DNA of 64,000 nt, from positions 39,650-103,649 of the IMG/VR virus record IMGVR_UViG_3300021180_000005. The stretch is one strand, 5' to 3'. Position 1 is the first letter of the stretch. Every line of letters starts with the position of its first letter. Of the stretch, positions 1 through 63,388 are shown in pieces. The position numbers were made by a program, and so were the translations under genes. Below the pieces are notes generated by a model. The model saw only the letters and a list, made by a program, of their open reading frames with translations, was not told where the DNA came from and ran no database searches. This stretch comes from a virus.

Positions 1-3000
1 CATACTGTTTGTCTTCAGTAGGTACAGAAGATCACGCATTACGAATGCCCCCATACACGGCTGTGCGTTCTCACTGGTAGTATCTATGATTCCTCCTGAT
101 GAGGACGCATCGATAGACTCTGGTTTTCCAATGTACGATCCATATACCTGTGATTTTAGGTATGGAGTAGATGTGTCAAATACCTCTATGCGATCAATTT
201 CACAATCGCTACCAGACCCTAAATCTACTACCTGCACTGACAGTGTAAGAGTAGATGGCACCCCTCCGCTACTGGCAAAAGGAACTGTCAGTAGTTTACC
301 AGTGAATACCTGAATGTTGGTGCTCATACTGGAAAGGGGAACAGTAAACGATCCCCAAACTGGAAAGAACTGGCTATCGGGTGTACTGTTATTCTGGTTG
401 TAATTGCTTAGTGTAATAGTAAGCGTCCCTACGGTCCCTCCTGAGGGCGCTCGCGCAGCCACTCGTACAGAGTACTGCGTGTTTATATCTATGATTGGTA
501 CTTTGTTAGTGTCTTTGTAAGCTGTTTGGAATATCAACCCAGCATTGTGAATGGTAGACCCTGTAGTGTTGTTTATATACAGAGACTGACCCGTCACTGC
601 GCTTGTTATTAGCGTAGCATCTGTGATGCCCTGTGCAGCTTGCCATCCAAGAGGTATTACATTACCACCTGTAGCGCTGGGTAAAAATCCCCCATCAAAC
701 GTCAGACCTCCACCAGATGTCCAATTATTTATCTTGTTCAACTGCAAACCGTAGAACATACGCCCTGCGTATGCCACGTCCCATGCTGAGCTTCCTAGCT
801 CAATTAAATTGAACAGGTTATCTCCCTGTACATCTATTTCTCTTGAGTTGAGGAGCACGGCATCCGAGAACGTAAGCGTAGCAGTTGTACTTAGATTGTC
901 ATTGATCACTGTGGACTTGTACGTAACAGGAGAACCATTCTGTACTTGCACCACTACGTCTTGTTCGATTACGTAGAAATTGGCTCCCGGTACTCCATTT
1001 TGTCCTGCCTCTGTTAGGGCAATTCCTCTTGCTACTACATTTGGTGGTCCGATGGGTAAATTAGTTACCTGTATAGACGTTGCGTTCTCTGGTACCGTAA
1101 ACACAACTGGGTATGAAGGCGTTGTTTCATAACCAGTCTTGGTTATGAAAAATACTACACCTTGCCTAGTTCCTGCCCCAATTGCTGGTGCGTTAGGGTT
1201 AGAGGTAAAGAATAACCCAGTGGTTGCTGAAGACGGTCCCGCATTTCCATATATTGGGTTTGTACCAGTGCCCAAAGTCAGAGTACCGGGGTCTATAGTA
1301 AAGTTTTTACCAAACGTTACACCTTGCCCGTTTTCTGACGCTAAAGGTATAGGTAGTCCAGAAGTGAACCCTGTAATGTCAAATGAACCCGCCCCTAATG
1401 AACCGGGTACGATGATGTTGGCGATTAGATTAAATGGGGATAGAGTGTAGCCTGCTCCGCTATTCGTGCAACCTGTGACCGATATTGTTTGTCCATTTAC
1501 AGGGGCTACTCCACCTGAAGGTACAGAGTACGTGTAGGTGGCTACTCCTGAGTTAGACATTTGCGTGCTAGTGATTGTAACTGTAGCACTAGATAAAGCT
1601 TCTACAATGGTCCATGTACTGTTCCAGTTTGTAGGAGTCTCCCCAGTTATCCGCACAGATGTTCCTGCGGCTAACCCCGGTACAGAGTTTGTCATAGTAA
1701 CTGTAGCTATGGTTTGCTGGTATGTACCCGAAGTTCCGTTTGGATAGGAAAGTCCAGTAACTCCCACGTTAACTACGAAGTAAAATCTTGCTGCCCCTGC
1801 AGTTCCAGACGGCTTTGCACTTCCTACAGAGGTGACTAAATACGTCTGATTAGAGAACTGTGGAAAATTTGCTATAGTTCCTAGATAAACGTATGTAGCT
1901 AACTGATGTGCGTTGAAATACGTAGTCAACGCAGTGTCTTCTGTCTGGGAATAGTAAATTACAAAGTTTGAACCAGATGTATGTGTAGGTCCGGGTCCTG
2001 CACCCCAGAATGCTCCTGCTCCATCTCCTGAACCAGTAAAAGTATGCTGAGCTGGTTGGGTTATGGAGGATATAGGATAATTAAACTGCAACGTGCCCGT
2101 AGCCGCTGGGGATATAGCTGTTGTGCCTATATTCGCCTCAGGACTTGGTAGGTCCATTTCAAAAGTTGTAGGTGTAAGACCTGTACTAAGGACAGTACCT
2201 GAAAAATTTAAGAATGTAGGTGTTGCACCTGTTATGCTGTATACCTGATCTTGAGCTACTACTGGTCCTACGTTGTACGTGAACGTGACCACATTGTTGG
2301 TTATAGAGTAAGAAGTAATGGTAAGAGTGTTACTACTGCCTGACCCTGATGCTGCTGTAAAAGCGGGAGGTGCTCCGGGTCCTATTTGCGATAAAGGGCC
2401 AAACGTTACCCCGTCGTACACGCGTGGTCTCTCGGTGCCGATAGAAAGATCAGAGAACACGATGTGCTCTTTGTTATTCATCGTTACGCTTTTTGCAAAG
2501 GAACCCGGAAGAATACCAGTCAAAGCGATATACAAAACTCCGGGGTTGCTGGTAACGTTTTCCTCCCACAGTATTCCACTGGCGTCTAATGCCAAGGTGT
2601 AAGTCTGACCGTTGTTTTGAATGTACGATTTTACGTAGTTGAAATTTACCTTTGCTGGTGAAAGATACGCCAACACATCTAGGTCATTAACAAACACTGT
2701 ACCTAGACCACTTGCAGTTACCTGTACTCCGAACTGTGCGTTGTTAACGTCAGAGAATAACCACGTAGAATTCCACAAATCTATTGCACTGCCTAGGCTA
2801 TAGATGGTAGGTACTGTGGTTAACGCCTGTGTCTTTGGTGATCCTACAGGTAACCCGTTCTTCATCAACTGAAGGATTATTGAAGACGACCCGGTAGTGT
2901 ATGCTTGAAAAGTAGAAGTAAACCCTGTTATACCTGAGGTTGCTGGAATAGAAAAGTTATAAAAAGTTGTCTGCAGGGCCTGTGTGCCTGAGGCTAAGGT

Positions 3001-4033
3001 GTAATACACCGTAACCTTGATGTTGTTTGCTGAAATTGTTGCTGACCCACTGGAAACTGTTCCTGCAATTACAAACCCAAGATGTGAGTTGTTAATGTTC
3101 CCTGCAGGGGTTAACGTAGTGCCCCATTGGTACGAAGATGACCCTGCCGTGTATGTAGCTTTTGTGGTTCCTACTGGAATGTTGACTGTGCTGATGGGAT
3201 TAAAAGACACCGCATCATTTATCAAACTAATCTGCAGTGATCCCACTCCAAACACTGAACAAAACGAATCCACTGTCACCTTTATACCGTTAACAGTGGC
3301 GTCTGCTGGTATAGATGCTGTGGCAAAGTGATCTATAACCAGATGACCTGAGCTTTGCGCAGTTAGGTTAACCGTAGTGTACGATGTGCCAGTGGCTACA
3401 ATATTAGTAGGAGTATTCCATTGCTGTGGTCCGGGGGCATCTCCTTCGTTAGCGGTTCTGCTAGGAGTTGGCGATACGCTGTTAGGTGATCCAGATATTG
3501 CTGAGGCAAATCCCGTAATTCCAAGAATGTTGTTTGGACTTTGCCATGCATTGCCTGTACCAGTAACCGTAGCTACAGTAGGGGCATTTGGTCCAGAAAA
3601 TTCTCCTGTAGTAGACGCGGCAATTCCGACAAGAGGTGCGTACGTACCCGGAGCTAATGTTACGCCTGCAACGGTAAATGTCTTGCCTATGGCGTTTACT
3701 GATACTACCGTCACCGTTTGTCCGTTTAGAATTGATGTCTGTCCTGTGAACCCACTGAGGACAAATTGTTCATTAACCGTTGGGTCAGTACCGATGTAGC
3801 TGAAAGTTGCCAACCCTGCACTGCCTACTACAATCTGAGTTATAGTTAAGGTCTTGGTGAAGACATACACCGAGGACAAACCTGCGCGGGTAAAACAACT
3901 TCCGGTTATGTAATCCACGTCCCAATTTCGTGGGCTTGCTCCCTCTGGTAAGTCTGATGGATTGGCTGCCGTAATAAGCCCTGCGAACGTGTCAAGAGAC
4001 GCTGTTCCGAGCTGGTCAAAGATTGTGGCCCAC
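1..4033 (-). CDS. Large virion structural protein (tail/head-completion, possibly P22 gp10-like), 3'-partial; start appears to need a +1 frameshift
   Basis: Minus frame (FDQLGTASLDTFAGLITAANPSDLPEGASPRNWDVDY...PCMGAFVMRDLLYLLKTNSM) is open at both ends checked and runs off the window; Thr/Gly/Ser/Val-rich. SD GGAGG + GTG at 4033 is out of frame by +1 at CTT-TGA-C (4021-4015). Absent from the ORF track because it has no stop in the window. Confidence 0.65.
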
Positions 4034-4095
4034 TGGGTTTTCCTCCGTTATAAATATAGGCCGATTTTCACGGCCATTCCTGTTAAACAGGTGAA

Positions 4096-4344
4096 TTATG
4101 CCTGATTGGTATTTCCAACCTTCCAGCACTGTACTGGGCTTACAACTAGTGTGACGTTCTTCTGTTCTCCAACATTACCGGGTGTTTCCACGGTCAATGA
4201 TACAAGATCAGCAGGGCCACCATTTCCGCCTGCGCTTATTGGTGTAATGCTAGACACAAGGCATCGGACCATTACGTAGTCTCCTACGACAAACGGCGAT
4301 CCTTTGATGTCTCTTTCTTCAAGTGTTCCTTTAGTTGACGACAT
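4096..4344 (-). CDS. Small hypothetical virion-module protein (weakly similar to 24966..25163)
   Basis: ORF in late operon with SD GAGG; RDxxGxPxxxGD motif shared with the 24966 ORF. Confidence 0.6.
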   Translation of the reverse strand: MSSTKGTLEERDIKGSPFVVGDYVMVRCLVSSITPISAGGNGGPADLVSLTVETPGNVGEQKNVTLVVSPVQCWKVGNTNQA

Positions 4345-4347
4345 GTA

Positions 4348-5412
4348 TTATCCTCGCACCGATGTTCTATCTACCCAAACTTCAAACAACAATACATCAG
4401 CCAACACTGCTAAAGGTATGGTTTGATTAGCAATGAGTTCTACAGACACTCCTGTAGCATTGCTAAAAATTTGAAGTGTATCAGTAACTGGGCTGTAATG
4501 ATAAGTATATGCTGAGCTAGCTCCGATAAGAATGTTGGTAGGTTCTTCTCCCCACACATCGCATTTAAGGAAGCCGTTTACATCCACAGTTCTAGCATCC
4601 AAGAATGGAAATAACCCCATTGGAATTCCTCCAGTGGTGTAACCTCCGGGGGTGATAGTTACTAAACCCCATGCTCTTATCACTTTTCCAGTTATGTCTG
4701 GGAAGCAAAGCTCTGTTAGGCCTGCCAAACCAATAGTAGAAGACACAGAAGATGTACCAATAGGAGGTACAATAGCTCCCGCAGAAGGAGCAACAATAGC
4801 GTTGCTTAAAAGTGTAACTGCGCCATTACGTGCAAGGGCTCTGCCATTGAGAGCTGCTCCCGTTCCAAGAGATATAGAAGATAAAGCTACTATGTCTCCC
4901 ACAACAACAGCGCTGGTTCCTATGGTTGCAGAACTGGTCACTTGCCATAGAACGTTTTTAGCTTGCGCTCCGTTAGTTAGTAAAACAGTTGATCCTACTC
5001 CAAAAGTCAAAGAGGATGCTGCTTGGAAGATGAACTGAGCGTTTGGATTTCCTTGTCCATTCAGGGTGACCGTTTGTCCTACATTAAGCAAAATTGCTCC
5101 ACCGCTGTAAAGTCCAGCTGTGAAGGTTTGCCCGTCTAGTGCCCCTACAATAGGAGTAGCAGGAGTCAAACCAGCAAAGTACAGATACGCAGTAGTAAGG
5201 TCTGTTTGTGCCTGTGCGGCCACCGCGTCAGTGATGTGTTGCGTTGCCGGGGGAACTACTATTCCGGGAGGAAATCCAGTTACAGAAGTTCCGGGGGACA
5301 AGCCTAGGTTAGCCCCGCTGATTACAGTAGCACCAGAGTTTGTAACTGTGCTACCTGCAAGTACGGCGAAGTTATCTGCTGATCCCAATAATTGATCAAT
5401 TGTTAAAGCCAT
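4348..5412 (-). CDS. DUF3494 ice-binding-like protein fused to a C-terminal phage domain
   Basis: LGSADNFAVLAGSTVTNSG, LGLSPGTSVTGFPPG, AAQAQTDLTTAY, FIFQ, AKNVLWQVTSSATIG, GRALARNGAVTL are typical DUF3494 motifs; the C-terminal ~130 aa is paralogous to 5438..5815. Confidence 0.9.
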   Translation of the reverse strand: MALTIDQLLGSADNFAVLAGSTVTNSGATVISGANLGLSPGTSVTGFPPGIVVPPATQHITDAVAAQAQTDLTTAYLYFAGLTPATPIVGALDGQTFTAGLYSGGAILLNVGQTVTLNGQGNPNAQFIFQAASSLTFGVGSTVLLTNGAQAKNVLWQVTSSATIGTSAVVVGDIVALSSISLGTGAALNGRALARNGAVTLLSNAIVAPSAGAIVPPIGTSSVSSTIGLAGLTELCFPDITGKVIRAWGLVTITPGGYTTGGIPMGLFPFLDARTVDVNGFLKCDVWGEEPTNILIGASSAYTYHYSPVTDTLQIFSNATGVSVELIANQTIPLAVLADVLLFEVWVDRTSVRG

Positions 5413-17992: not shown

Positions 17993-18577
17993 TTAATGAC
18001 GAGCAGCAATCTCTTTGCAAAGTGCTATGAATTCATCATGTGACAAACTTTGTTTTGCAAGGTTTGCATCCTTACAACATGGTACGCAGTTCTTTAGCGT
18101 ATAACCTATAGCTGAGTCTAAACGGTCAATTCCGTTATATGTGTAGGTATCATTACCTACCAAAGATAAACCACGTTTGGTTCTATTTCGTGAACTTACA
18201 GATGTGTATATGTTTGATGGTTCTCTACCTGTGTAATAGCAGGGAGATTCCGTAAGTTTTCTAAACTGTTCCTGAGTCAGTTCCCACATAATGCCACGGC
18301 TTTTAGCTTGACCTTTGTAATTTCCAAATAGTCCACTAAACTCTGGATTGCTCACTGTACGAAGACAACCACAGCTGCCTACACGGTTAGACCTTAGCTC
18401 ATTAGTAGGGACATTTTTAGTATTACCACAGTCACAAAAGCATTGCCACGCTGTGATTCCATTTTCACTGATGCGTTTTTGCACCACTAAGCGCCTAAAG
18501 CGCTGTCCTTCTAAGTCTAAGTGCGCTTTTATTTTTCTAGGTGCTAAATCTTTACTTCCTTTTGGTCTTCCTAACAT
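17993..18577 (-). CDS. HNH-type homing endonuclease
   Basis: WQCFCDCGN..SCGC N-terminal domain; NGIDRLDSAIGY...NCVPCCKDANLAK. Confidence 0.85.
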   Translation of the reverse strand: MLGRPKGSKDLAPRKIKAHLDLEGQRFRRLVVQKRISENGITAWQCFCDCGNTKNVPTNELRSNRVGSCGCLRTVSNPEFSGLFGNYKGQAKSRGIMWELTQEQFRKLTESPCYYTGREPSNIYTSVSSRNRTKRGLSLVGNDTYTYNGIDRLDSAIGYTLKNCVPCCKDANLAKQSLSHDEFIALCKEIAARH

Positions 18578-18579
18578 GA

Positions 18580-18655
18580 TACCTCCTTCAAAGGTCGAGA
18601 AGGGAGCAGTTGAAGGCTGCTCCCAACTCTGACTCAGGATTATAAGCCCTGAGGT
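18580..18655 (-). promoter_or_regulatory. Kissing-loop SD-sequestering RNA element, copy 1
   Basis: Stem GGGAGCAG/CUGCUCCC, loop CCUUCAA complementary to UUGAAGG in the ACCU/AGGU hairpin that covers the SD. Confidence 0.8.
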
Positions 18656-18664
18656 ATTAAAAAT

Positions 18665-39345: not shown

Positions 39346-41823
39346 ATGCCAGAGATTGTGCAACAATTGCGGCCTTTAAACTTGGCCGAGTTACAACCTA
39401 GTTTAAAGCCTATTTTAATTACCGATGATGCTGGGCTTCTGCTGCTGAAAGATTATATCGCACGGAAAAGAGCCAAGGAAGACTTCGTACTTTGTTTGGA
39501 TACAGAAACAAACATATGCGATGATTTTTGGTTTCGTCGTGCACGGACGATTCAGCTAGGAGACCGTGATGAGCAATATGTAATTGATCTACTAGCGTTC
39601 GCTGGATCGAAAGAAAGACTAATTGCTACGCAAGGAGAGTACGGGATAAACAGTGAAGGAGTCTATGACAAGGTCATAGATATCCTAAAACCTATACTGT
39701 GTAGCAGAGAGTTTCTAAAAGTGGGGCAGAACCTTTCATTCGAATACACAATATGGTGGTGGAACTTTGGCCTGCGTATATGGAACCTGTACAGCACCGA
39801 TATGGCAGAGCGTGTCATTCAGGCCGGGACAATATCACTCAAACGCATGGCCGAGTTCTCCATGGCATCTATTGCCGCGCGACACTTCGGCTTGTTGATC
39901 GACAAGAGTGAACAGGAAGGATTCGATCTAGAAACACCTCTTACTCAGAAGCAGATAGATTACGCCGCGCTAGACGTACGCTTTCCACTTGCTATGCGGC
40001 AGGCTCAGGTCAACATTATGACTGCCGACCAATTACTGACCACATCACAAATTGAAAATGATGCCATAGGTACATTTACAGATATGCATCTCAATGGTCA
40101 GAACTTAGATGATGATCGTTGGAAGGAGCGCATCGCTCACGTCATTGAGAGACGTGTTGGTGAACTGAAGATTCTAGATGAAGGCTTCATGCCTATCGTA
40201 GGTCATAAGAACAAGCAGATTGATGAAGTGGAGATTGAAAAACGATATAAACATTGGCAGGAAGATTTTCAACTACCGACTCAGGTTGAGATTGACCTAG
40301 CCTCGCGAAAGAGAGAAGAGAAGGACAAGACTAAGAAAGCGGAACTTGCAGCGCAGTTGAAGGCTGCGGAGAAGAAACGTGCGGAAGAAAAAGCTGCTGC
40401 ACGCAAAGCACACTCAGAGCTTAGCAAGCTTCGTACTGAGTGGAAAAATAAGGTGGCAGATTGCGAAGGCGAAGCCTATATCAACTATGACTCGCGCGAC
40501 CAGCTGCTGTCGGCTCTGCAACAGCTGCCGGGTATGAGGATCATTAAGGACACCACAGACGATACTCTTCTGCGGTTCAATGATCGTCCCCTTATTCAAA
40601 CACTGAGGAAGTTCAAGAAAGGCAAGAAGGATACTGGTACGTATGGGCTGCAGTGGACTCAACGGTGGATAACCAAGCCTCTTGCAAAAGAAGGATGGCG
40701 TCACCCAGTAGATGGGAGATTGCATTGTGTGTTTTCTCAATTAGAAGCAGAAACAGGTAGAACTTCTTCTAGTAAACCTAACGCACAGAATCTTCCTAAA
40801 GACGATGAAGTGCGTTCTTGTTTTATTGCTAGCCTTCCAGATAAAGACGAGCCAGATGGTTATAGCATAGTAACAGTAGACATGGAAGGTTGTGAGCTTA
40901 GAATCATAGCCGAATTAGCAAACGCTCAATCATGGATAACGGCATTTTCAAAAGGACAAGATGTACACTCTGTGTCTACAGAGATTCTGTACCCTGAAAA
41001 ATGGCCTTCTTTGAAAGAAGAAGGCTGTGCATATTACATCCTCAATGAGCAAGGAGAACCACAACGTAAGAAATGTAAATGCAAAGGCCATGTAGAGCTT
41101 CGTAATAATACTAAAGCAACCAACTTTCTTCTTGCATACGGAGGAGGTCCTGACGCTTTGGCTGATGCTTTGGATGTAACAGTAGATACTGCTAAAGAAT
41201 TAATGCGCTTGCACGAATCTAGGTTTCCCGATATTTGGTCTTACTTAGAACGCAGCGGTAAATTAGCTAAATCTATGCGAGAGGCTAGGGATATGTTTGG
41301 GCGTCGTAGGTCATTCCCTGTTCCTACTAGAGAGATGGCAAGACAATGGTGGATTTCTGAAAAAGAAGAAACCTTAGAATTGTCAGAACCAGAAAAAGAA
41401 GCAAGTATATTCAGGTTCAAATCTACTAACCTACGAGAGCCTAACAAAGAAGAACTACGTTCTCTTACACACAGAAGCCCTACAGAAAAAGAAATTGATA
41501 GAGCTATATATTCTCTGAATGGAAGTGTAGAGCGACGTGGTAAGAACCATTGTATTCAAGGAACAAATGCTTCTCTAATTAAACGCGCTATGGGAAGCGG
41601 ATTCGATGTCAACGGAAAACCATACCTCTGGCATCAGCTTCCACAGTATAAAGCAAAAATAGTTAATATGGTCCATGACGAGTTAGTACTTGAGTGTCCT
41701 AAACGTTTTGGACAAGCCGTCGCTGATTTAGTAGCAGATGCTTTTGCTAGAGCCGCAGCAGAAGTGATGCATAAAGTGAAGATGACTGCGGACTATCACA
41801 TTGCGGATCGGTGGATGAAATGA
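39346..41823 (+). CDS. Family A DNA polymerase with 3'-5' exonuclease
   Basis: Exo CLDTET and YAALD; ETGRTSSSKPNAQNLP; motif A DMEGCELR, motif B RNNTKATNFLLAYG, motif C VHDEL. Confidence 0.95.
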   Translation: MPEIVQQLRPLNLAELQPSLKPILITDDAGLLLLKDYIARKRAKEDFVLCLDTETNICDDFWFRRARTIQLGDRDEQYVIDLLAFAGSKERLIATQGEYGINSEGVYDKVIDILKPILCSREFLKVGQNLSFEYTIWWWNFGLRIWNLYSTDMAERVIQAGTISLKRMAEFSMASIAARHFGLLIDKSEQEGFDLETPLTQKQIDYAALDVRFPLAMRQAQVNIMTADQLLTTSQIENDAIGTFTDMHLNGQNLDDDRWKERIAHVIERRVGELKILDEGFMPIVGHKNKQIDEVEIEKRYKHWQEDFQLPTQVEIDLASRKREEKDKTKKAELAAQLKAAEKKRAEEKAAARKAHSELSKLRTEWKNKVADCEGEAYINYDSRDQLLSALQQLPGMRIIKDTTDDTLLRFNDRPLIQTLRKFKKGKKDTGTYGLQWTQRWITKPLAKEGWRHPVDGRLHCVFSQLEAETGRTSSSKPNAQNLPKDDEVRSCFIASLPDKDEPDGYSIVTVDMEGCELRIIAELANAQSWITAFSKGQDVHSVSTEILYPEKWPSLKEEGCAYYILNEQGEPQRKKCKCKGHVELRNNTKATNFLLAYGGGPDALADALDVTVDTAKELMRLHESRFPDIWSYLERSGKLAKSMREARDMFGRRRSFPVPTREMARQWWISEKEETLELSEPEKEASIFRFKSTNLREPNKEELRSLTHRSPTEKEIDRAIYSLNGSVERRGKNHCIQGTNASLIKRAMGSGFDVNGKPYLWHQLPQYKAKIVNMVHDELVLECPKRFGQAVADLVADAFARAAAEVMHKVKMTADYHIADRWMK

Positions 41824-55549: not shown

Positions 55550-56865
55550 TCCTTAAGTTAAAAGAAATTCTCCACAATCCTTTTCGTGATTTAAAGTCTA
55601 ACCCACTTATAGAAGATAAAATAGAAAGTTTAGTAGAGTCAATTAATCTCACCGGATTCTGGGACAACGTTGTTGTGCGTAAGAACTCAGCAGGCAAATA
55701 TGAATGTGCATATGGACACCACAGAATCGCCGCTGCTATTCGCGCAGGTCTTGTAGAAGCTGACTTCATTGTGAAGAAACTGAACGATGCTGCTATGATC
55801 CAAATTATGGACAATGAGAATCGTGATACCTACGGCTCTACCCCAGCATCTTTAATTGAATCAGTTAGCGCAATCGTTAAAGCTTTAGCAATCGGGACAA
55901 TACCAGCGTTTGAGATCAACAGTGATACGCGCAAAAACCTGATTCGCTATGCCCCTTCATTTATCCCCGGTAAGGCACCTTCCCCATCAGGTGGGGAACG
56001 TCCCTATACTGCGTTGAGTATATCTCGGTTTTTAGGCAGAGCACGTAAAGGCGGAAAAGAAGCTAGCCCAAGCGTAATCGCAGCATTAGATGCTCTGTAT
56101 CTAAAAGAGCGTGGAAGATTCAATGACTCCTTGCTTGTCACCAAAGACAAAACAGGAGCAAAGGTTCCTGTCACCACAAGCGAACTGCTACGCATCACCA
56201 GCGATATAAAACGCGATGTGGAGACAAAGGACAAGCGCACTATAGAAGCTAAACAGACAGCCGCAGAGTTTGACAAACAGCAACGCGAGCTACAGGCGCA
56301 ACGCAAGAAGACAGAGCAGGAAGCCGAGGTCGCACGTCAGAAACTAGTAAACGAACTAGCCAAAGCCAAGGCCAATGAGAACAAGTCAAAAGTAGAAGCC
56401 ATCAAAGCGGAGATCAAAGCCAAGGAGACCTACGCAGTAGAAAAGGCACTTGATCTTGAGGTAAGAGCAGCGGAGTTAGAAAAGAAAGTTGAGCAACGCA
56501 AACTGACTGAGGCCGCTGTTAAGAAGGAAGATGAGTACCTCCCCATTAAAAGAGAAGTGGAGCGCATCTTGCACAAGCTAGAGGGCGAAACCTCTACCAG
56601 CAAAGAAGCACTTGCTTCTGAAGTCAAAGCATTAAGCCGTCTATCAATCAATGTCACTGACCGTGAAAGATTGAGACAGGCTGCATTAAACATGGGTACC
56701 TTTTACACAGACTGGGTAGCTATGCAGTTTTTGCCACCACTTAGTACTAAAAAGAAGCTAGATGAGTACCGAAAAAGAGAAGATGCAAGACACAGGGCAG
56801 AGGATAAAAATGAGGAAAACACTAAAAGAAAGGTTCTGGGAAAAAGTAAACACATACGGACCTGA
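55546..56865 (+). CDS. ParB-like N-terminal domain protein with coiled coil
   Basis: LVESINLTGF..VVVR..YECAYGHHRIAA..ENR. Confidence 0.8.
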   Translation: MILKLKEILHNPFRDLKSNPLIEDKIESLVESINLTGFWDNVVVRKNSAGKYECAYGHHRIAAAIRAGLVEADFIVKKLNDAAMIQIMDNENRDTYGSTPASLIESVSAIVKALAIGTIPAFEINSDTRKNLIRYAPSFIPGKAPSPSGGERPYTALSISRFLGRARKGGKEASPSVIAALDALYLKERGRFNDSLLVTKDKTGAKVPVTTSELLRITSDIKRDVETKDKRTIEAKQTAAEFDKQQRELQAQRKKTEQEAEVARQKLVNELAKAKANENKSKVEAIKAEIKAKETYAVEKALDLEVRAAELEKKVEQRKLTEAAVKKEDEYLPIKREVERILHKLEGETSTSKEALASEVKALSRLSINVTDRERLRQAALNMGTFYTDWVAMQFLPPLSTKKKLDEYRKREDARHRAEDKNEENTKRKVLGKSKHIRT

Positions 56866-57313
56866 GCCTAATGTGTATACCTACATGCATTACCCAGAGA
56901 TTTCTCAAACTAGATGTTGGCTTTGGACTGGGGCATTAAATGAAAAAGGTAGAGGAAGTATAAAAATTGACGGCAAAGAACAAAAAGTGCACCGCGTGGC
57001 TTGGTTCTTAGCCACAGGGTTGTGGCCATCAAAGAACGTGCTCCATAAATGTGACGTTACAAACTGTGTAAACTTCTTACATTTATTTGAAGGAACACAA
57101 AAAGATAATGTAACGGATAGGGAATTGAAAGGAAGAAGTTTTCATCCTAGAACTACAAAACTGAGCGCTATGCAAGTGCTGGCTATTCGCGCAGCGTTCT
57201 TGGCAGGGGTTACCAAAGCTGTCCTATCACGACAATACCACGTAGTGCACGGGACTATACGTCATATACTCTCAGGAAGAAATTGGAGACCAAGTGCTAA
57301 GTCTAAGAAGTAG
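56810..57313 (+). CDS. HNH endonuclease
   Basis: ERFWEKV, CWLWTG, VHRVAW, LHKCD..NCVN..HLFEGT..DN. Confidence 0.9.
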   Translation: MRKTLKERFWEKVNTYGPEPNVYTYMHYPEISQTRCWLWTGALNEKGRGSIKIDGKEQKVHRVAWFLATGLWPSKNVLHKCDVTNCVNFLHLFEGTQKDNVTDRELKGRSFHPRTTKLSAMQVLAIRAAFLAGVTKAVLSRQYHVVHGTIRHILSGRNWRPSAKSKK

Positions 57314-57744
57314 CAGTGTCAGCGAAGATCGCATGCAGCGTACAAACATCATTGGCAGCTTCTGTGGACAACCAATCATTACCATTGACGAGTTGGGAGC
57401 GGAAGTAGACGATGATGCAGAGCTTCATATTAGACTCATGTCTAGCTCTGGTATTAGTATCCCAGCAGAGATTCTACCGGGAGAAGAAAGATGCAAAGAT
57501 GGCATCATACGCAGGCAGACCACAGCAGAAGCGCAAGGTTATGACACATACCACAACCAAGAACAGATTGAGCAAGGCCGAAGTCGTAAAAGTATCCCGT
57601 ATGGCAAGCTCGCTGCAAAGGATGGAAAGATTGTCTACTGGAGACCCCACCGTGCAACGCTTGAAGTGTATACTGTGGGCACTGCACTTGCATGTCTAGA
57701 TAAAGAACCTGAGCCGTTCGTATTAATTGAAGAAGGTGACTGAT

Positions 57745-58179
57745 ATGTTTAAACACGGACACACAACCCACGACTGGAAAAGTAGAACATATAACAGTTG
57801 GTGGGCAATGCTATGTCGCTGCAATAATAGCAATGTAGCCGAGTATGGGCGCTATGGAGGCAAAGGTGTCCGTGTATGTAAACGTTGGTATTCATTTTCT
57901 AATTTCCTAGCAGATATGGGAGTACGTCCTAAAAATACATCTCTTGGCAGATTTAGAGACAAAGGAAACTACACACCAAGCAATTGTGCGTGGATGACAC
58001 GGCAAGAGCAAGAAGCAGAGAAATGGAAGAACCGTAATAAGCTTTGCAAACGAGGCCACCCACGAACACCAGAGAACACTAAAAAGGTATACAACATTTG
58101 CGTGCATGGGCAATGCAAAATTTGTGACCGAGAAGCTGCTGCCCGTTACAGGAAGAGGAAGCTATGCTTAAAAGTCTGA
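57745..58179 (+). CDS. HNH-like endonuclease
   Basis: TYNSWWAM..RC, YGGKGV.VC.RW..F.NFLADMG, GNYTPSNC.W. Confidence 0.8.
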   Translation: MFKHGHTTHDWKSRTYNSWWAMLCRCNNSNVAEYGRYGGKGVRVCKRWYSFSNFLADMGVRPKNTSLGRFRDKGNYTPSNCAWMTRQEQEAEKWKNRNKLCKRGHPRTPENTKKVYNICVHGQCKICDREAAARYRKRKLCLKV

Positions 58180-58236: not shown

Positions 58237-58845
58237 ATGACTCAGAACTACGGAGAAGATATGCGAAGGAATTCAGAAACACTAACACAAAAGAAGAAAG
58301 ACCAGAAAACGGGGAGGTTTCTAAAGACACACGGATGTAGACTGGAACCAACTCCTACCTACTACAGTTGGAGCACTATGCTTTCTCGCTGTAGAAACAA
58401 CAAAGGTAAAGACTGGAATCGTTATGGCGGTAGAGGTATAACGGTGTGCAGAAGATGGTTTGTTTTTGCTAACTTTCTTAAAGACATGGGCGAACGTCCT
58501 TTAGGTACTACCCTTGATAGGTTTCCTGACAACGAAGGAAATTATGAACCAAGTAACTGCCGTTGGGCGACCTACAAGCAGCAAGCAAAACAAAGAAAAT
58601 TACCACAAGTAATGCGTAAAGACAGTGCCTCAGGTTACAAGGGAGTGTACTGGTGGCCGCGTGATAATAACTGGAACGCTAAAATAACTGTGAATGGAAA
58701 AACAAATAACCTTGGATATTTTCCTACTGCTAAACTTGCTGCTACTGCCTACGACACTGCAGCTATAAAGCATTTCAAGGAACGCGCCTGCACTAATGAG
58801 ATGCTTGGTATTTTATCGAAGAAAGGAAAGGCAGTTGTCGTTTAA
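58237..58845 (+). CDS. HNH-like endonuclease with AP2 domain
   Basis: YGGRGITVC.RW, TLDR..NEGNYEPSNCRWAT, SGYKGV, AYD. Confidence 0.88.
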   Translation: MTQNYGEDMRRNSETLTQKKKDQKTGRFLKTHGCRLEPTPTYYSWSTMLSRCRNNKGKDWNRYGGRGITVCRRWFVFANFLKDMGERPLGTTLDRFPDNEGNYEPSNCRWATYKQQAKQRKLPQVMRKDSASGYKGVYWWPRDNNWNAKITVNGKTNNLGYFPTAKLAATAYDTAAIKHFKERACTNEMLGILSKKGKAVVV

Positions 58846-60313
58846 TGATCTGATTCAGAAAAAGTTTGGGTCTTCATTTGAAGAGCCTGAGCTACCGCCC
58901 TCCCCTTCCAATGCCTCTTTGGAAAGTTTTATTCAAAAATTTGGACATAAAACTGAAGAGTACTTTTTCTACGACAACACAGTTGCTCTCAGGTTTGACA
59001 CTGAGGAACATGTTTATTACCGAGTAGGAGAACTTGGAAATCTAATACGTTTAGATGGAGTAACAACTGTTGTTGGTATCATAGATAAATCCCTGATGCT
59101 CACCCCGTGGGCGGCAAAGATGGCGATTCAGAAGTTGCTACGAATCATGCCTACGGAAATGGTTGAAGGTATCATTCGTATTAAACCTTTAACGTTTGAT
59201 GAATTCACCACCATCGTGTTGGAAGCTAAGAGTGCACACAAAGACAAGCTAGATGAGGCTTCGGATATCGGCCACATGGCGCACAAGTGCCTTGAAGAAT
59301 CAATCAAGCATGCTATGGTGCATGATCCACAGAGAATCGTACGTCAACTTATCAATGAGCCTCAGGATGAGCAAGCGAAGACGGCGGCTAACAGTGCGCT
59401 AGTCTGCATGCACAACCACAACATCCGATGGATAGAAACAGAAACCAAGATTTATTCGCGCGAGCATGACTATGCAGGGACCATGGACGGTTTGGCGTTG
59501 TGTGATTCGTGCAGCGACAAAGCGTGTTGCCCTGTACCATTCAAGGATCGCATCTGCCTGATCGATTGGAAAAGTTCGAATTATCTTAAGATAGAATACC
59601 TTTTTCAGACGGCCAGTTATAAACATGCTAAAATGGAAGAGCGACCTGATCTAAAGATCGAAGATATCTTCCTATTCCGACTAGGTAAGAGCGAAGAAGA
59701 AGCAGGTAAGTTCGAAGTATGGCACATGACACCTGAAGAGTACGAAGAGGACTTCGAAGGTTTCCTGTGCTGCCTTAATCTGACACGACTGGTGCACAGT
59801 GTAGAGGAACGCATGAAAGCTCAGAAGGCAACTATTCGCGCCGTCAAGAAAGAACAACGCGAAACTGCAAAAGCAATTGGCAAGGAGCAAGAGAAGTTGC
59901 AGAAGGCTATTGCTAAGGCTGAAACTAAGAAGAAAAAAGAAGAAGAGAAAGTACGCATCAAAGCAGAAGCCAAAGCAGAATGCGAACGGTTAAAGGCTGA
60001 GAAGAAAGCTGGGCGTAACTCACAGGTGGAAGTGAACCAGACTGTAAATCTGGCGTCCCAAGCGGACATTGCAGGTTCGATCCCTGCTGCGCCCACCATT
60101 AGACCTGAAGTAATGGCTGCGTTCGAAAAGGTAGTAGAGAACAATGCAGAGTTACTTGAGAAGCTAGTAGACAGTGGTTCCTCCGGCGAGGGTCAGACTC
60201 TTATAAAGTCTTCAGCTCCAGATCAGAGCGGACAGGTTGGATCAACACCAACAACCACTACCATATTTGAAGAGGAGACAGCAGTGTCTACATTCAAACT
60301 GCCTATGGAATGA
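58835..60313 (+). CDS. PD-(D/E)XK exonuclease (recombination-type) with two tRNA genes inside its 3' part
   Basis: GVTTVVG, GHMAH, ETKIY..YAGTMD, LIDWKSS, FQTASY. Confidence 0.8.
   Translation: MSFNDLIQKKFGSSFEEPELPPSPSNASLESFIQKFGHKTEEYFFYDNTVALRFDTEEHVYYRVGELGNLIRLDGVTTVVGIIDKSLMLTPWAAKMAIQKLLRIMPTEMVEGIIRIKPLTFDEFTTIVLEAKSAHKDKLDEASDIGHMAHKCLEESIKHAMVHDPQRIVRQLINEPQDEQAKTAANSALVCMHNHNIRWIETETKIYSREHDYAGTMDGLALCDSCSDKACCPVPFKDRICLIDWKSSNYLKIEYLFQTASYKHAKMEERPDLKIEDIFLFRLGKSEEEAGKFEVWHMTPEEYEEDFEGFLCCLNLTRLVHSVEERMKAQKATIRAVKKEQRETAKAIGKEQEKLQKAIAKAETKKKKEEEKVRIKAEAKAECERLKAEKKAGRNSQVEVNQTVNLASQADIAGSIPAAPTIRPEVMAAFEKVVENNAELLEKLVDSGSSGEGQTLIKSSAPDQSGQVGSTPTTTTIFEEETAVSTFKLPME
60011..60098 (+). 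tRNA. tRNA-Tyr(GUA)
   Basis: Acceptor GGGCGUA/UGCGCCC-A-CCA; anticodon arm CCAGA-CUGUAAA-UCUGG; long V arm; T arm GCAGG-UUCGAUC-CCUGC. Confidence 0.85.
60173..60263 (+). tRNA. Atypical tRNA with UAU anticodon (Ile-AUA reading) and long variable arm
   Basis: Acceptor AGUGGUU/AACCACU-A-CCA; AGACU-CUUAUAA-AGUCU; V arm GCUC/GAGC; T arm GUUGG-AUCAACA-CCAAC (non-canonical loop). Confidence 0.65.
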
Positions 60314-60732
60314 ATCCAAAATCTATAGGAGAGAAAACAGAAGCAATAGTTTTGGCTGAGTTAATCAAGAACGATTACACCGTTTTGCTTCCTTTTGGAG
60401 ATAATCAACGATACGATTTTGTAATAATCATTGAATCAACATTCAAAAGGTTACAATGCAAAACTGGTAAACTGAAAAACGGCTCTATATGGTTTCGTGC
60501 TTGTTCTACACAAAGCAACATGCAAAGAACGAAAACTATAAATTATCGTGGAGAGGTAGATTATTTCATAGTACACTGCTACGAAAATGAAGAGACCTAT
60601 TTGATTCCCGTAGAAGATGTAGGTGTAAGCAACGTAGCTTTACGAATAGAAAAGTTACCAAAAACTTCTCCCTACTCAACAACAAGATGGGCTAAAGAAT
60701 ACAAACTTAGGAGAACTAATAACAATGCCTGA
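60310..60732 (+). CDS. PD-(D/E)XK endonuclease (group I intron-associated type)
   Basis: GEKTEA..PFGDNQRYDFV..RLQCKT..VDYF..YLIP. Confidence 0.85.
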   Translation: MNPKSIGEKTEAIVLAELIKNDYTVLLPFGDNQRYDFVIIIESTFKRLQCKTGKLKNGSIWFRACSTQSNMQRTKTINYRGEVDYFIVHCYENEETYLIPVEDVGVSNVALRIEKLPKTSPYSTTRWAKEYKLRRTNNNA

Positions 60733-61705
60733 AGAAACAAAGCAACCAACGCAGTTGACAGTTTTGAATCGAGCACCTGAGTCCATGGTAGTTGCACAGA
60801 AGGTTAATGCACTTTCTCGTCTGTTTCAATTAAAACCTAAGACATTGGAATTAGTTTCCAAATCAACACGTCAGGAAGGAGCTACCCCCGGCACGTTCCG
60901 AGTTACTTCTACGAATGAGTCCTTTAAGGAACTGCGTGTAGTTATGCTGGCAGAGCCAGTTGAGCAACGCGAAAAGTACCGTAAGGGAGAATATACCAAG
61001 GATTCTAAGGAATGCTTCTCGCTAGATAATGTACAGCCGCACCCAAGGGCACGTACACCCTTTGCATTGTATTGTGCAAACTGCCCACAAGGGGACATCA
61101 ATTGGGTGAAGTACCGAGAAGCTAAAGCAAAGGGAATCACAGGAGACGCATTGTCGGCCTACCTGCCTCCCTGCCGTAAGTTCTGGCATTTGTTTATTGC
61201 TTCGCGCGAAACACAACGTCCGTATTATTTTAACATTAAAGGCGGAAGTGTAAAACCCTTTGAGGACGCCATGCAGAACGTTGCAGATTTGTTTCAGATG
61301 ATCTATCAAAACATCAAGCAAGAAAACAGACATATTGCTGCAGCCAATGCAAAGAACTCAGACGGTCCGCAGATACCTTTGAAGTCTCTGCCTGAGACGG
61401 TAGGGGATATTATTTGGCATATCTCATTCACCATGTACGCTTGGAATAGGAACGGCGGACCATGGATGGTTGGCTTTAAAGACTTCAAAGTGATGAGTGA
61501 AGAAGACCGAAAGGACTTTGGAAAAATTATTGAAGACATTAAAGCGCGGCGAGCAGCTGGGCAATTGCAGAGCCAAGAGGCGAGCGAGGCCGAAGAGGAG
61601 GCAGCGGTAGTGGAGAAGCCAGCAAGTAGTGGAATTCGCACGGCAGAGGTTATCTCTGTCACTACGAACGAAGTTGCACAAAAGAATGCCCAGATTCAAA
61701 TCTAA
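60725..61705 (+). CDS. Putative ssDNA-binding/recombination protein
   Basis: CFSLD..P...CANCP...PPC motif, next to the exonuclease. Confidence 0.45.
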   Translation: MPEETKQPTQLTVLNRAPESMVVAQKVNALSRLFQLKPKTLELVSKSTRQEGATPGTFRVTSTNESFKELRVVMLAEPVEQREKYRKGEYTKDSKECFSLDNVQPHPRARTPFALYCANCPQGDINWVKYREAKAKGITGDALSAYLPPCRKFWHLFIASRETQRPYYFNIKGGSVKPFEDAMQNVADLFQMIYQNIKQENRHIAAANAKNSDGPQIPLKSLPETVGDIIWHISFTMYAWNRNGGPWMVGFKDFKVMSEEDRKDFGKIIEDIKARRAAGQLQSQEASEAEEEAAVVEKPASSGIRTAEVISVTTNEVAQKNAQIQI

Positions 61706-62519: not shown

Positions 62520-62705
62520 ATGCAATCACGTACACCTGAAGGGAAGCACACCAAGCGGTTCATCGTTTTGAGGAAGAGCTTAATTGATGGTAAGTATGAG
62601 CGCTCTGTGAATATCCCTGAGTTCTTCCCCACGAGGGAAGAGGCACAGGCTGCAGTAGCGCAACGCGGAGATGCCGGGATCACCTACAAAGTTCGCCAGA
62701 AGTAA
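62520..62705 (+). CDS. Small hypothetical protein
   Basis: SD AAGGAG. Confidence 0.55.
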   Translation: MQSRTPEGKHTKRFIVLRKSLIDGKYERSVNIPEFFPTREEAQAAVAQRGDAGITYKVRQK

Positions 62706-63055
62706 TTGACCTTGTATGGATGAAGCTGTAGCTTCCGTTATTGGACGGCGGTTCGATTCCGCCCATCTCCACCAAAGCAACTCACCAGTAATAAGCACTC
62801 TGCCAGATGTGCGAAAATGAGGCATGAACCTGAGTTGCTTTTGTGGGGATGAAAAGGTTTCGACAGTGACGTAGTAAGAGACAGTGGACATACACGCCGT
62901 GCCCTGCCACGTTACGGAGGGGCAAAACCAAAATGCCAACGACAACACCGTTGTGACTCCCAAGGCTAAGGCCATGGGCGCAGCTGCTGGGGTTTAATCA
63001 GCTGTGTAGTTTAACCACGCGAACCGGGGACAAGTTCCCCGGACCTCGCAGTGGA
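62706..63055 (+). ncRNA. ssrA: Circularly permuted (two-piece) tmRNA
   Basis: T arm and acceptor 3' strand CAUCUCC-A-CCA (to 62774) precede the 5' strand GGGGAUG (62845) with G3-U70; intervening segment closed by AAAGCAACUCA/UGAGUUGCUUU; pk1; tag ANDNTVVTPKAKAMGAAAGV* at 62935-62997. Confidence 0.92.
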
Positions 63056-63388
63056 CTTAAAGGAGAATGCTATGTTGCACAACGGGCATTGGACACATCC
63101 TGAGCTGTGGATGATGTGGTTCGCAGTGGTAGGTACTGCTGTGAATTCATTGTTCATTGCCTATATGTTCTACAAGGAGATGAAATGAACAAACTAACAG
63201 CACTGAGTAAACTGGCAAATGCCTACTGGTATGTGCGCGATGTATATGGTAATGCGGTTTCTTCTGGTATTTTAGAAGACAAGTTCCATTACATCCGACG
63301 CAGCCTTCGCATTGAAGATTTGAAGCCTGTAAAGTGCACTGAAGGATTGAACCCAGTAGGACCACGGTATCTCTAAGGAGACATTGAG

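Follow-up and report, generated by a model that had tools for sequence, protein, structure and literature searches.

An exonuclease reading frame that runs through two nested tRNA genes in a phage from soil or peat

INTRODUCTION

Why should a protein-coding frame stay open through two tRNA genes that lie inside it on the same strand? The question is raised by a 64,000-nucleotide (nt) stretch of viral DNA, IMG/VR record IMGVR_UViG_3300021180_000005, positions 39,650 to 103,649. This stretch, hereafter the window, takes up the right-hand 64 kb of one 103,649-bp contig (44.9% G+C) of a phage of ~104 kb from soil or peat. On its + strand, an exonuclease gene (58835..60313) encloses a gene for tRNA-Tyr(GUA) (60011..60098) and a gene for an atypical tRNA with the anticodon UAU, here called tRNA(UAU) (60173..60263). 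We consider it likely that the linker holding both tRNA genes is a landing pad for insertions, and that selection keeps the frame open through the nested tRNAs for the sake of a docking peptide encoded beyond them.

To place the gene among its relatives, we used 278 exonuclease homologues from a search of 5.8 billion proteins, mostly encoded on phage-sized contigs of ~100 kb. Comparison at the protein level was made across 116 homologue clusters, with one representative each (P numbers), and DNA was compared across 19 IMG/VR loci and 80 metagenome loci (L numbers). Among the relatives that carry a nested tRNA, P0003-5, 9, 10, 12, 13, 15, and 18-20 are known from protein only.

RESULTS

The exonuclease frame reaches a conserved C-terminal tail

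The open reading frame (ORF) at 58796..60313 is stop-free through both tRNA genes and ends in ...TFKLPME*. An initial annotation of the window had described two CCA-ending tRNA genes on the sense strand, in frame within an exonuclease ORF that remains open, and this was confirmed by ARAGORN, which called tRNA-Tyr(gta) at 60011-60098 and a CCA-ending tRNA-Ile(tat) at 60173-60263. Because homologues begin MSFADLI, translation likely starts at the TTG at 58835, which is preceded by a purine-rich Shine-Dalgarno-like stretch (AAAGGAAAGG) and opens a coding sequence of 492 codons plus stop. The protein matches PHROG family phrog_298, "exonuclease" (E 1.3e-22), and carries the catalytic PD-(D/E)XK motifs D...(D/E)xK...QxxxY as D231, D257-W-K259, and Q271...Y275, which are invariant in 31 homologues. 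No Pfam or NCBIfam match was found for the exonuclease. NCBIfam likewise gave no match for any of the three proteins searched, and a PDB sequence search returned nothing meaningful for the exonuclease or for a 326-amino-acid (aa) protein encoded downstream.

As judged from the alignments, the exonuclease has a PD-(D/E)XK (RecB/Cas4-like) core followed by a coiled coil rich in K and E, a linker that varies, and a peptide at the C-terminus. The coiled coil, encoded at 59807..60010 on the + strand, is the last part that is conserved in all homologues before the variable linker. Core and coiled coil are common to all homologues, and the linker after them is very variable in both length and sequence; in the short forms at L005, L038, and L044, the tail follows the coiled coil directly. 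In the window, the spacer between the two tRNA genes (60099..60172, +) codes for a helical module (VMAAFEKVVENNAELLEKLVD) that is also found in the exonuclease frame of L029 and L067. After the second tRNA gene come the tail codons, IFEEETAVSTFKLPME plus stop (60264..60313, +), of which the last eight residues (60287-60310) form the predicted docking peptide. The stop overlaps the start of the next gene as ATGA at 60310-60313, an overlap that the initial annotation had also reported.

The tail is the part of this C-terminal region that persists. Its motif, F/Y-x-(L/I/V)-P-(M/E/T)-E followed by 0-4 residues, was found in 91 of the 116 homologue clusters, and it is kept in relatives both with and without nested tRNAs. 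Where the initial annotation had seen an acidic/hydrophobic tail, the tail is indeed present, but a conserved docking peptide is the better reading of it. In the 39 different DNA versions that were compared, the proline of the tail is spelled CCA 13 times, CCC 11 times, CCG 9 times, and CCT 6 times, ten codons serve the hydrophobic L/I/V position, and both F codons are used. The tail is also kept whichever gene follows it, be that the gene for the 326-aa OB-fold protein, a gene for a Cys-rich HNH-like protein, or, in the window, a PDDEXK_5 endonuclease gene. Because proline uses all four of its codons and the following gene varies, the tail is taken to be under selection as a peptide, at the amino-acid level.

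The frame stays open over a gene overprinted in relatives

Within the exonuclease linker of relatives, there is an overprinted gene of 50-79 codons in another frame (MYVYI...VGFY...ES(D/E)H.S.RDAA.RV.YLNGG), which is absent from the window. It occurs at L001, L002, L011, L020-L023, L026, L027, L030, L036, L040, L047, L049, L056, L057, L071, and L091 (for example, L040:3365-3550), and it belongs to no Pfam or PHROG family. The conserved string PCTSTS in the exonuclease frame is a reading of this gene's own Shine-Dalgarno sequence (GGAGG) and ATG. Third codon positions of the overprinted gene are its most variable (entropy 1.15, versus 0.82 and 0.76), and the frame constrained in sequence in this region is that of the overprinted gene.

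We then asked how often the exonuclease frame should be open across this region, computing the expectation from the overprinted gene's protein sequence and the phage's codon usage (synonymous versions). The exonuclease frame was stop-free in 18 of 18 distinct loci (26/26 when all are counted), with 0.4-13% expected per locus, and the third frame held 1-7 stops. Because every distinct locus is stop-free against so low an expectation, the exonuclease frame appears to be kept open by selection even where its amino acids vary freely. The initial annotation had proposed dual-coding DNA and had named as a check whether homologues keep the frame open and conserve the tail with or without the tRNAs; they do both, which supports the proposal that this DNA appears to serve as tRNA and as coding sequence at once.

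tRNA-Tyr is nested in several relatives

The tRNA-Tyr(GUA) of the window, of the bacterial class II type, is 88 nt long; its variable arm is long, the discriminator is A73, and the CCA end is encoded. It is read in the exonuclease frame as GRNSQVEVNQTVNLASQADIAGSIPAAPT. It scored 47.6 bits with the Rfam tRNA model, against a gathering score of 29. Its minimum-free-energy structure is a cloverleaf whose acceptor and T stems have 7 and 5 bp, respectively, and the sequence has the anticodon loop CUGUAAA, a 4-bp variable-arm hairpin, and the 3′ end ...GCGCCC-A-CCA. In a comparison of seven tRNA-Tyr sequences, double changes that keep the pair were seen at 10 of 25 pairs, located in the D, anticodon, variable-arm, and T stems. 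We take tRNA-Tyr to be a real tRNA under selection for RNA structure.

Nesting of tRNA-Tyr is not confined to the window. In four more DNA loci, L020-L023, a tRNA-Tyr lies in frame within the exonuclease gene, each frame is open to ...PMEG*, and all four tRNAs are above the Rfam threshold (44.8-48 bits). At the protein level, the in-frame translation of tRNA-Tyr (..VEV.QTVNL...AGSIPAAPT) was recognized in 12 of the 116 cluster representatives, and P0018 and P0020 show a second tRNA-Tyr-like translation in another phase (..AADCKP...GSIPSSPT), which is known from translated sequence alone. Overall, 14 of the 116 clusters have a nested tRNA-Tyr-type translation, and all 14 reach the conserved tail. 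The string GSIP in P0007 was considered as a third nested tRNA and rejected, as it is the exonuclease-frame reading of the VGFY motif of the overprinted gene. Outside the exonuclease gene, an ARAGORN call of tRNA-Phe(gaa) at 18577-18660 of the window (84 nt) has no CCA end and a poor structure, and is probably false.

The window allele differs from the other nested copies in a manner that preserves the frame. It is 88 nt long and the others 89 nt, the difference being one extra G in the D loop of the others. The first base of the tRNA (G1) accordingly falls at codon position 1 in the window and at position 3 in the 89-nt alleles, and the phase on exit is the same in all: at the window junction, one extra base (GCT versus AT, as read off the alignment) offsets the shorter D loop. 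The window tRNA-Tyr is stop-free only in the phase that the ORF uses. A free-standing, intergenic tRNA-Tyr at L100:1983-2070, on an unrelated and visibly G+C-richer phage contig, differs from the window copy at ~5 of 88 positions. The window tRNA-Tyr is closer to this copy than to the nested copies of L020-L023, a pattern that points to replacement of the allele more than to plain vertical descent.

tRNA(UAU) belongs to a family of phage tRNAs

The second nested tRNA gene encodes a 91-nt tRNA(UAU), CCA end included, whose variable arm is long; it is read in the exonuclease frame as SGSSGEGQTLIKSSAPDQSGQVGSTPTTTT. Its minimum-free-energy fold is a cloverleaf with stems of 7, 4, 5, 4, and 5 pairs, all 25 of them Watson-Crick. 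To compare it with its relatives, we defined a tRNA(UAU) family from an alignment of 17 copies and built a covariance model from the 17 phage genes. This model matched the window tRNA(UAU) over its full length (model positions 1-94) at 50.2 bits (E 1.4e-10). In the 17 aligned copies, the stems are highly variable and co-vary, and no variation occurs in the anticodon loop CUUAUAA or in the variable-arm hairpin GCUCC-N-GAUUAGAGC. The window copy keeps the CUUAUAA loop and the hairpin stem, but has GAUCAG where 17 of 17 aligned members have GAUUAG. The family-invariant U, replaced by C in the window copy only, would give GAT-TAG, an in-frame TAG in the window's phase.

Elsewhere, members of the family are free-standing. 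At L023:3220-3314, the tRNA(UAU) is free-standing and intergenic, after a 316-aa gene, and has stops in all three phases; at L101:3389-3481, it lies within an array of 16 tRNAs. A looser pattern scan found tRNA(UAU) on 24 viral contigs, where most copies are inside large arrays (10-32 tRNAs), and the array copies sit beside ordinary tRNA-Ile(GAU) and tRNA-Met(CAU). The family is widespread in phages (window, L023, L101, and L103-L125), with members of 92-95 nt and the invariant variable-arm hairpin GCUCCAGAUUAGAGC. The three copies tested against Rfam (window, L023, and L101) all fall below the tRNA gathering score. This invariant hairpin has the look of a recognition element for some factor. 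In this phage, AUA makes up 38% of isoleucine codons, and tRNA(UAU) is the phage's only AUA decoder. We regard the window tRNA(UAU) as a family member that is either adapted to its coding position or merely tolerated there. Free-standing genes for tRNA-Trp and tRNA-His are also present on the phage contig.

Nested tRNA-Tyr comes and goes among near-identical genes

We built a maximum likelihood tree of the exonuclease core from 106 rows with the linker excluded, using a quick search. On this tree, nested tRNA-Tyr must have been gained or lost at least 11 times. In several sister pairs with good support, one member is a carrier and the other is not, as in P0004/P0016 (branch lengths 0.003), P0003/P0014, P0019/P0021, and P0015/P0042; on the core sequences, carriers and non-carriers are shown to be interleaved among near-identical cores. 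Upstream of the nested tRNA-Tyr, no fewer than three kinds of module occur (..AEKK.G, ..VELKPEG, and ..GWEPI.G).

Genes of the homing-endonuclease kind are dense in this region. At L057, an inserted HNH ORF (3818-4447) splits the exonuclease into 2881-3855 and 4441-5196, at a site ~31-35 codons after the DWKSSN motif, and the exonuclease ORF ends at the same place in L036, L037, L054, L058, L061, L069, L070, L080, L081, and L095. A group I intron in such interrupted exonuclease genes was considered and set aside: five loci were scanned with no Rfam match, and the interruption at L057 is the HNH ORF. It is plausible that co-conversion during homing drives the shuffling of the linker.

In the window, the gene that starts on the exonuclease stop (60310..60732, +) encodes a PD-(D/E)XK endonuclease (Pfam PF11645, PDDEXK_5, E 1.6e-33). 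Its product is similar to PDB 2OST (E 6e-5), which we take to be the tRNA-intron homing endonuclease I-Ssp6803I. The gene was found only in the window genome and in none of the related loci searched. It probably encodes a free-standing homing endonuclease and, as no related locus searched has it, is probably a recent insertion beside the nested tRNAs. Directly upstream of the exonuclease gene, there are three tandem HNH or AP2-HNH ORFs on the + strand (56762-57313, 57727-58179, and 58237-58845), the last of which overlaps the exonuclease start.

The tail is predicted to dock on an OB-fold neighbor

The predicted partner of the tail is the 326-aa OB-fold protein (60725..61705, +), a conserved downstream neighbor. 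It gave a tblastn match in 68 related loci, downstream of the exonuclease match every time. An AlphaFold2 model (pLDDT 70.8) shows an OB-type core. Structural matches of the model are weak: with Foldseek, RB69 gp32 was matched at a probability of 0.93 but an E of 2.9e-3 and a TM of 0.26-0.36, and with VIA-align, PhiC31 gp3 gave Z 7.9 (rmsd 4.2 Å over 152 residues), T4 gp32 Z 5.3 (4.8 Å over 162 residues), and RB69 gp32 Z 4.8 (5.2 Å over 159 residues). Cysteines C97, C117, C120, and C150 are invariant, and H106 is nearly so. The protein has an acidic C-terminal region, and ESM Atlas links it to PF23977 (Pam3_Gp34) and DUF5895. It is probably a gp32-like single-strand DNA binder.

Complex prediction placed exonuclease residues 498-505 on residues 189-200, 234, and 254-261 of the 326-aa protein. 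The complex scored an ipSAE of 0.62, with the best of three controls at 0.01, and at least 43% of contacts are shared between runs. Among 80 solved complexes, 58 attain this level, as do 2 of 110 mismatched pairs; these counts apply only roughly here, since the prediction was made with our own alignments. The tail is therefore predicted, at the level of these models, to dock on the OB-fold protein.

A permuted tmRNA lies downstream, and no sigma-70-like promoter was found between the core and the tRNAs

Transcription of the nested tRNAs was examined with a sigma-70 scan, which found no sigma-70-like promoter or terminator on the + strand from the core to the tRNAs. Because none lies between them, the tRNAs are likely co-transcribed with the exonuclease.

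A permuted (two-piece) tmRNA is encoded at 62682..63088 (+), 2.4 kb downstream of the exonuclease region. Both ARAGORN and Rfam (RF04321, 79.4 bits) recognize it, in agreement with the initial annotation. A tmRNA is also present in carrier loci (L021-L023), and in the same relative position in at least nine distinct loci without a nested tRNA (L001, L002, L004, L007, L026, L053, L055, L062, and L096). Throughout the phage group, the permuted tmRNA lies ~1-3 kb downstream of the exonuclease gene, and the tags that it encodes have diverse, atypical endings (-AAAGV, -AAAGC, -AAAGR, and -VAA). By this distribution, the permuted tmRNA is a syntenic trait of the whole phage group.

Relatives of the phage infect Acidobacteriota

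The nearest cultured relatives are the Tunturiibacter (Acidobacteriota) phages Tunturi_3 (43% identity) and Tunturi_4 (38%), and the host group of the phage's relatives is Acidobacteriota. Many JGI metagenome sample prefixes of the related loci presumably belong to peat and soil sets. The exonuclease locus of Tunturi_3 has neither a nested tRNA nor the tail. The annotation of Tunturi_3 (L102, PP885686.1) places an RNA ligase and an RNA 2′-phosphotransferase near the exonuclease gene, both of them functions of the RNA- or tRNA-repair type within this phage group. A DNA search of cultured phages matched only the tRNA-Tyr segment, in Campylobacter phages, and this match is one of tRNA similarity, uninformative on the locus. 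For the host tRNA-Tyr, a pattern scan of genome contigs gave no match.

DISCUSSION

A linker that accepts insertions in frame

We propose that the linker DNA would act as a permissive landing pad that is unconstrained in sequence. Depending on the relative, it contains a tRNA-Tyr gene, the overprinted small gene, extra peptide modules, or nothing, and in this genome it contains a tRNA-Tyr gene followed by a divergent tRNA(UAU) gene. Insertions would persist only when the exonuclease frame stays open, because the docking peptide must remain attached. The tRNA sequences would then also be translated, as linker residues, and the peptide F-x-(L/I)-P-(M/E)-E beyond them is predicted to dock on the OB-fold (probably gp32-like) protein encoded downstream.

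Maturation of tRNAs involves RNase P at the 5′ end and, in precursors that encode CCA, endonucleolytic cleavage and trimming at the 3′ end. Both nested tRNAs would be made from the exonuclease transcript, and any one transcript could yield either tRNA, by RNase P and 3′ processing that destroys the message, or full-length exonuclease, but not both. Ribosomes crossing the tRNA region would be expected to hinder folding of the cloverleaf. Treating the nested tRNAs as an "intron" that is excised and the message re-ligated was rejected: lengths of 88, 91, and 179 nt are not multiples of three, and removal breaks the frame to the tail.

Several observations weigh against this proposal. The first set concerns tRNA(UAU). 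In the window copy, Rfam reported nothing at E<1, leaving it below the tRNA threshold. With the family model, the other members score 59-81 bits and the window copy less than any of them, about as much as the best-scoring unrelated tRNA (51.6 bits). The T loop of the window copy is AUCAACA in place of the family's UUCGA(N)U, the D arm is shortened, and no other copy of the family is nested among the sampled genomes. The second concerns expression, in that phage or acidobacterial promoters may escape a sigma-70 scan. The third concerns the tail, whose DNA in many relatives holds the Shine-Dalgarno sequence of the next gene (GGAGG inside ATGGAGGG), so that part of the tail's conservation may be at the nucleotide level. 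Finally, the complex score for docking is the model's own confidence, obtained with our own alignments, and the pLDDT of the partner is below 50 (at least 42).

Alternative explanations

The tRNA(UAU) observations feed the strongest rival, which is only a partial one: that tRNA(UAU) is a decaying relic that now supplies nothing but linker codons, while tRNA-Tyr is functional. To this reading belong the score below the Rfam threshold, the family score of 50.2 bits against 59-81 for other members, the altered T loop, the shortened D arm, the change at a family-invariant base of the variable-arm loop, and the lack of any other nested copy in the sampled genomes. The T-loop and D-arm changes have no coding explanation. 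Decay fits less well with stems in which 25 of 25 pairs are Watson-Crick, with the retained CCA end, and with a phage in which AUA is so frequent among isoleucine codons and has no other decoder of the phage's own. We see the relic as a serious contender that falls somewhat short of an even chance, and we put the chance that tRNA(UAU) still works as a tRNA at roughly even.

A second explanation gives the nesting a regulatory role. Excision of a nested tRNA would truncate the exonuclease mRNA, and the phage tmRNA would tag the product of the non-stop message, either with an alternative C-terminus or with a mark for destruction. Translation and a sense-strand nested tRNA necessarily compete for one RNA, the phage carries its own tmRNA 2.4 kb downstream, and the same non-stop logic was proposed for selC in selB (Mukai 2021, PMC8124441). 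Against this, the tmRNA keeps its relative position in the loci that lack a nested tRNA, and a nested tRNA that has appeared or vanished at least 11 times among close relatives resembles a passenger that is tolerated more than a fixed regulatory device. The specific link to the tmRNA made in the initial annotation thus loses its footing, since relatives without nested tRNAs have the tmRNA too. We think such a switch improbable. Equally doubtful is its fuller form, in which read-through would give an exonuclease able to dock on the SSB-like protein and excision would give a tRNA plus a tail-less fragment that the tmRNA, with its atypical tag ending, releases and marks. If true, the switch would tune nuclease targeting against tRNA supply during infection.

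Translational coupling offers a third account, in which the frame is open only to couple translation to the next gene and the tail is conserved as a ribosome-binding site. In many relatives, the tail codons ATG-GAG-GG do include GGAGG, placed 6-10 nt ahead of the following gene's start, and in the window, stop and start overlap as ATGA. The proline, however, lies outside the Shine-Dalgarno sequence and is invariant yet written with four codons, the hydrophobic position takes ten codons, and phenylalanine takes both of its own. Swapping M for E at the variable tail position alters the nucleotides and keeps the motif, and the tail is retained whether an OB-fold, an HNH-like, or a PDDEXK_5 gene follows. 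The Shine-Dalgarno overlap thus fails to explain the codon pattern of the tail, and we rate coupling alone as more improbable still than the switch. Least credible of all, and rejected, is the lost stop codon that the initial annotation had kept as its simpler alternative, or a gene-calling artifact, with the real protein ending before 60011 and the rest untranslated: gene callers do extend ORFs to the first stop and the amino-acid sequence of the linker is not conserved, but homologues keep both open frame and tail, with and without insertions, no carrier has a stop, stop avoidance is far beyond chance, and the phase is compensated at the tRNA junction.

Relation to known systems

The closest precedent for the open frame is bacterial. 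In Alphaproteobacteria, an entire tRNA-Sec gene (selC) was predicted by bioinformatics to be nested in the selB ORF, with tRNA and full-length protein proposed as alternative products, in what was called the first bacterial case (Mukai 2021, Int J Mol Sci 22:4605, PMC8124441). The likeness is close: in both, a whole CCA-ending tRNA lies on the sense strand in the C-terminal extension of an ORF that stays open, the end of the ORF overlaps the start of the next, relatives have remnant forms, and the same consequence is proposed, namely that tRNA processing leaves a non-stop mRNA. The two cases differ in that SelB is the elongation factor of its own tRNA, which makes autoregulation plausible, whereas the tRNAs here have no known link to the exonuclease. 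The present case is also in a phage, involves two tRNAs, is polymorphic for presence and absence among near-identical genes, and has a nameable reason for the open frame in the docking peptide beyond the tRNAs. Literature text searches for nested or embedded tRNAs in phage ORFs found only this bacterial study and no phage description.

The anticodon and long variable arm of tRNA(UAU), together with the soil, peat, and acidobacterial setting, recall the allo-tRNA(UAU) of Acidobacteria and of soil and peat metagenomes, one copy of which overlaps an ORF (Mukai et al. 2017, NAR 45:2776, PMC5389517). An allo-tRNA D arm has a long stem and a tetraloop; that of the window copy has a 4-bp stem and a 4-nt loop, and other family members have ordinary D arms. 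Set against the published description, assignment to the allo-tRNAs was rejected, as the defining 8/4 or 9/3 acceptor/T-stem arrangement of a 12-bp acceptor branch is absent and the copies of the window, L023, and L101 are all 7/5.

Two further comparisons concern phages themselves, and in both the window stands apart. Free-standing tRNA genes and tRNA arrays are familiar from T4- and T5-like phages and from many large phages. The types found here are the same, with a near-identical tRNA-Tyr at L100 and tRNA(UAU) in arrays of 10-32 tRNAs, but unlike free-standing phage tRNAs, neither nested tRNA is intergenic and both are also read as codons. Overprinted, out-of-frame genes are likewise known in phages, such as Rz1 inside Rz. 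The small gene in the linker of relatives is a similar case: it lies out of frame, with a Shine-Dalgarno sequence and an ATG to itself, and the outer frame remains open. It is absent from the window and serves here only as independent evidence of selection on the outer frame.

Significance

For annotation, pipelines that forbid overlap between a tRNA and a coding sequence would truncate such genes or drop the tRNA, and at the Rfam tRNA threshold, the tRNA(UAU) family, marked by its invariant variable-arm hairpin, goes undetected. The locus is also useful as a natural system, offering near-isogenic carriers and non-carriers and two length variants of tRNA-Tyr that enter the ORF in different phases, together with a concrete and testable reason for the open frame, a C-terminal docking peptide. 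A tRNA gene that is also read as codons places two selective demands on the same bases.

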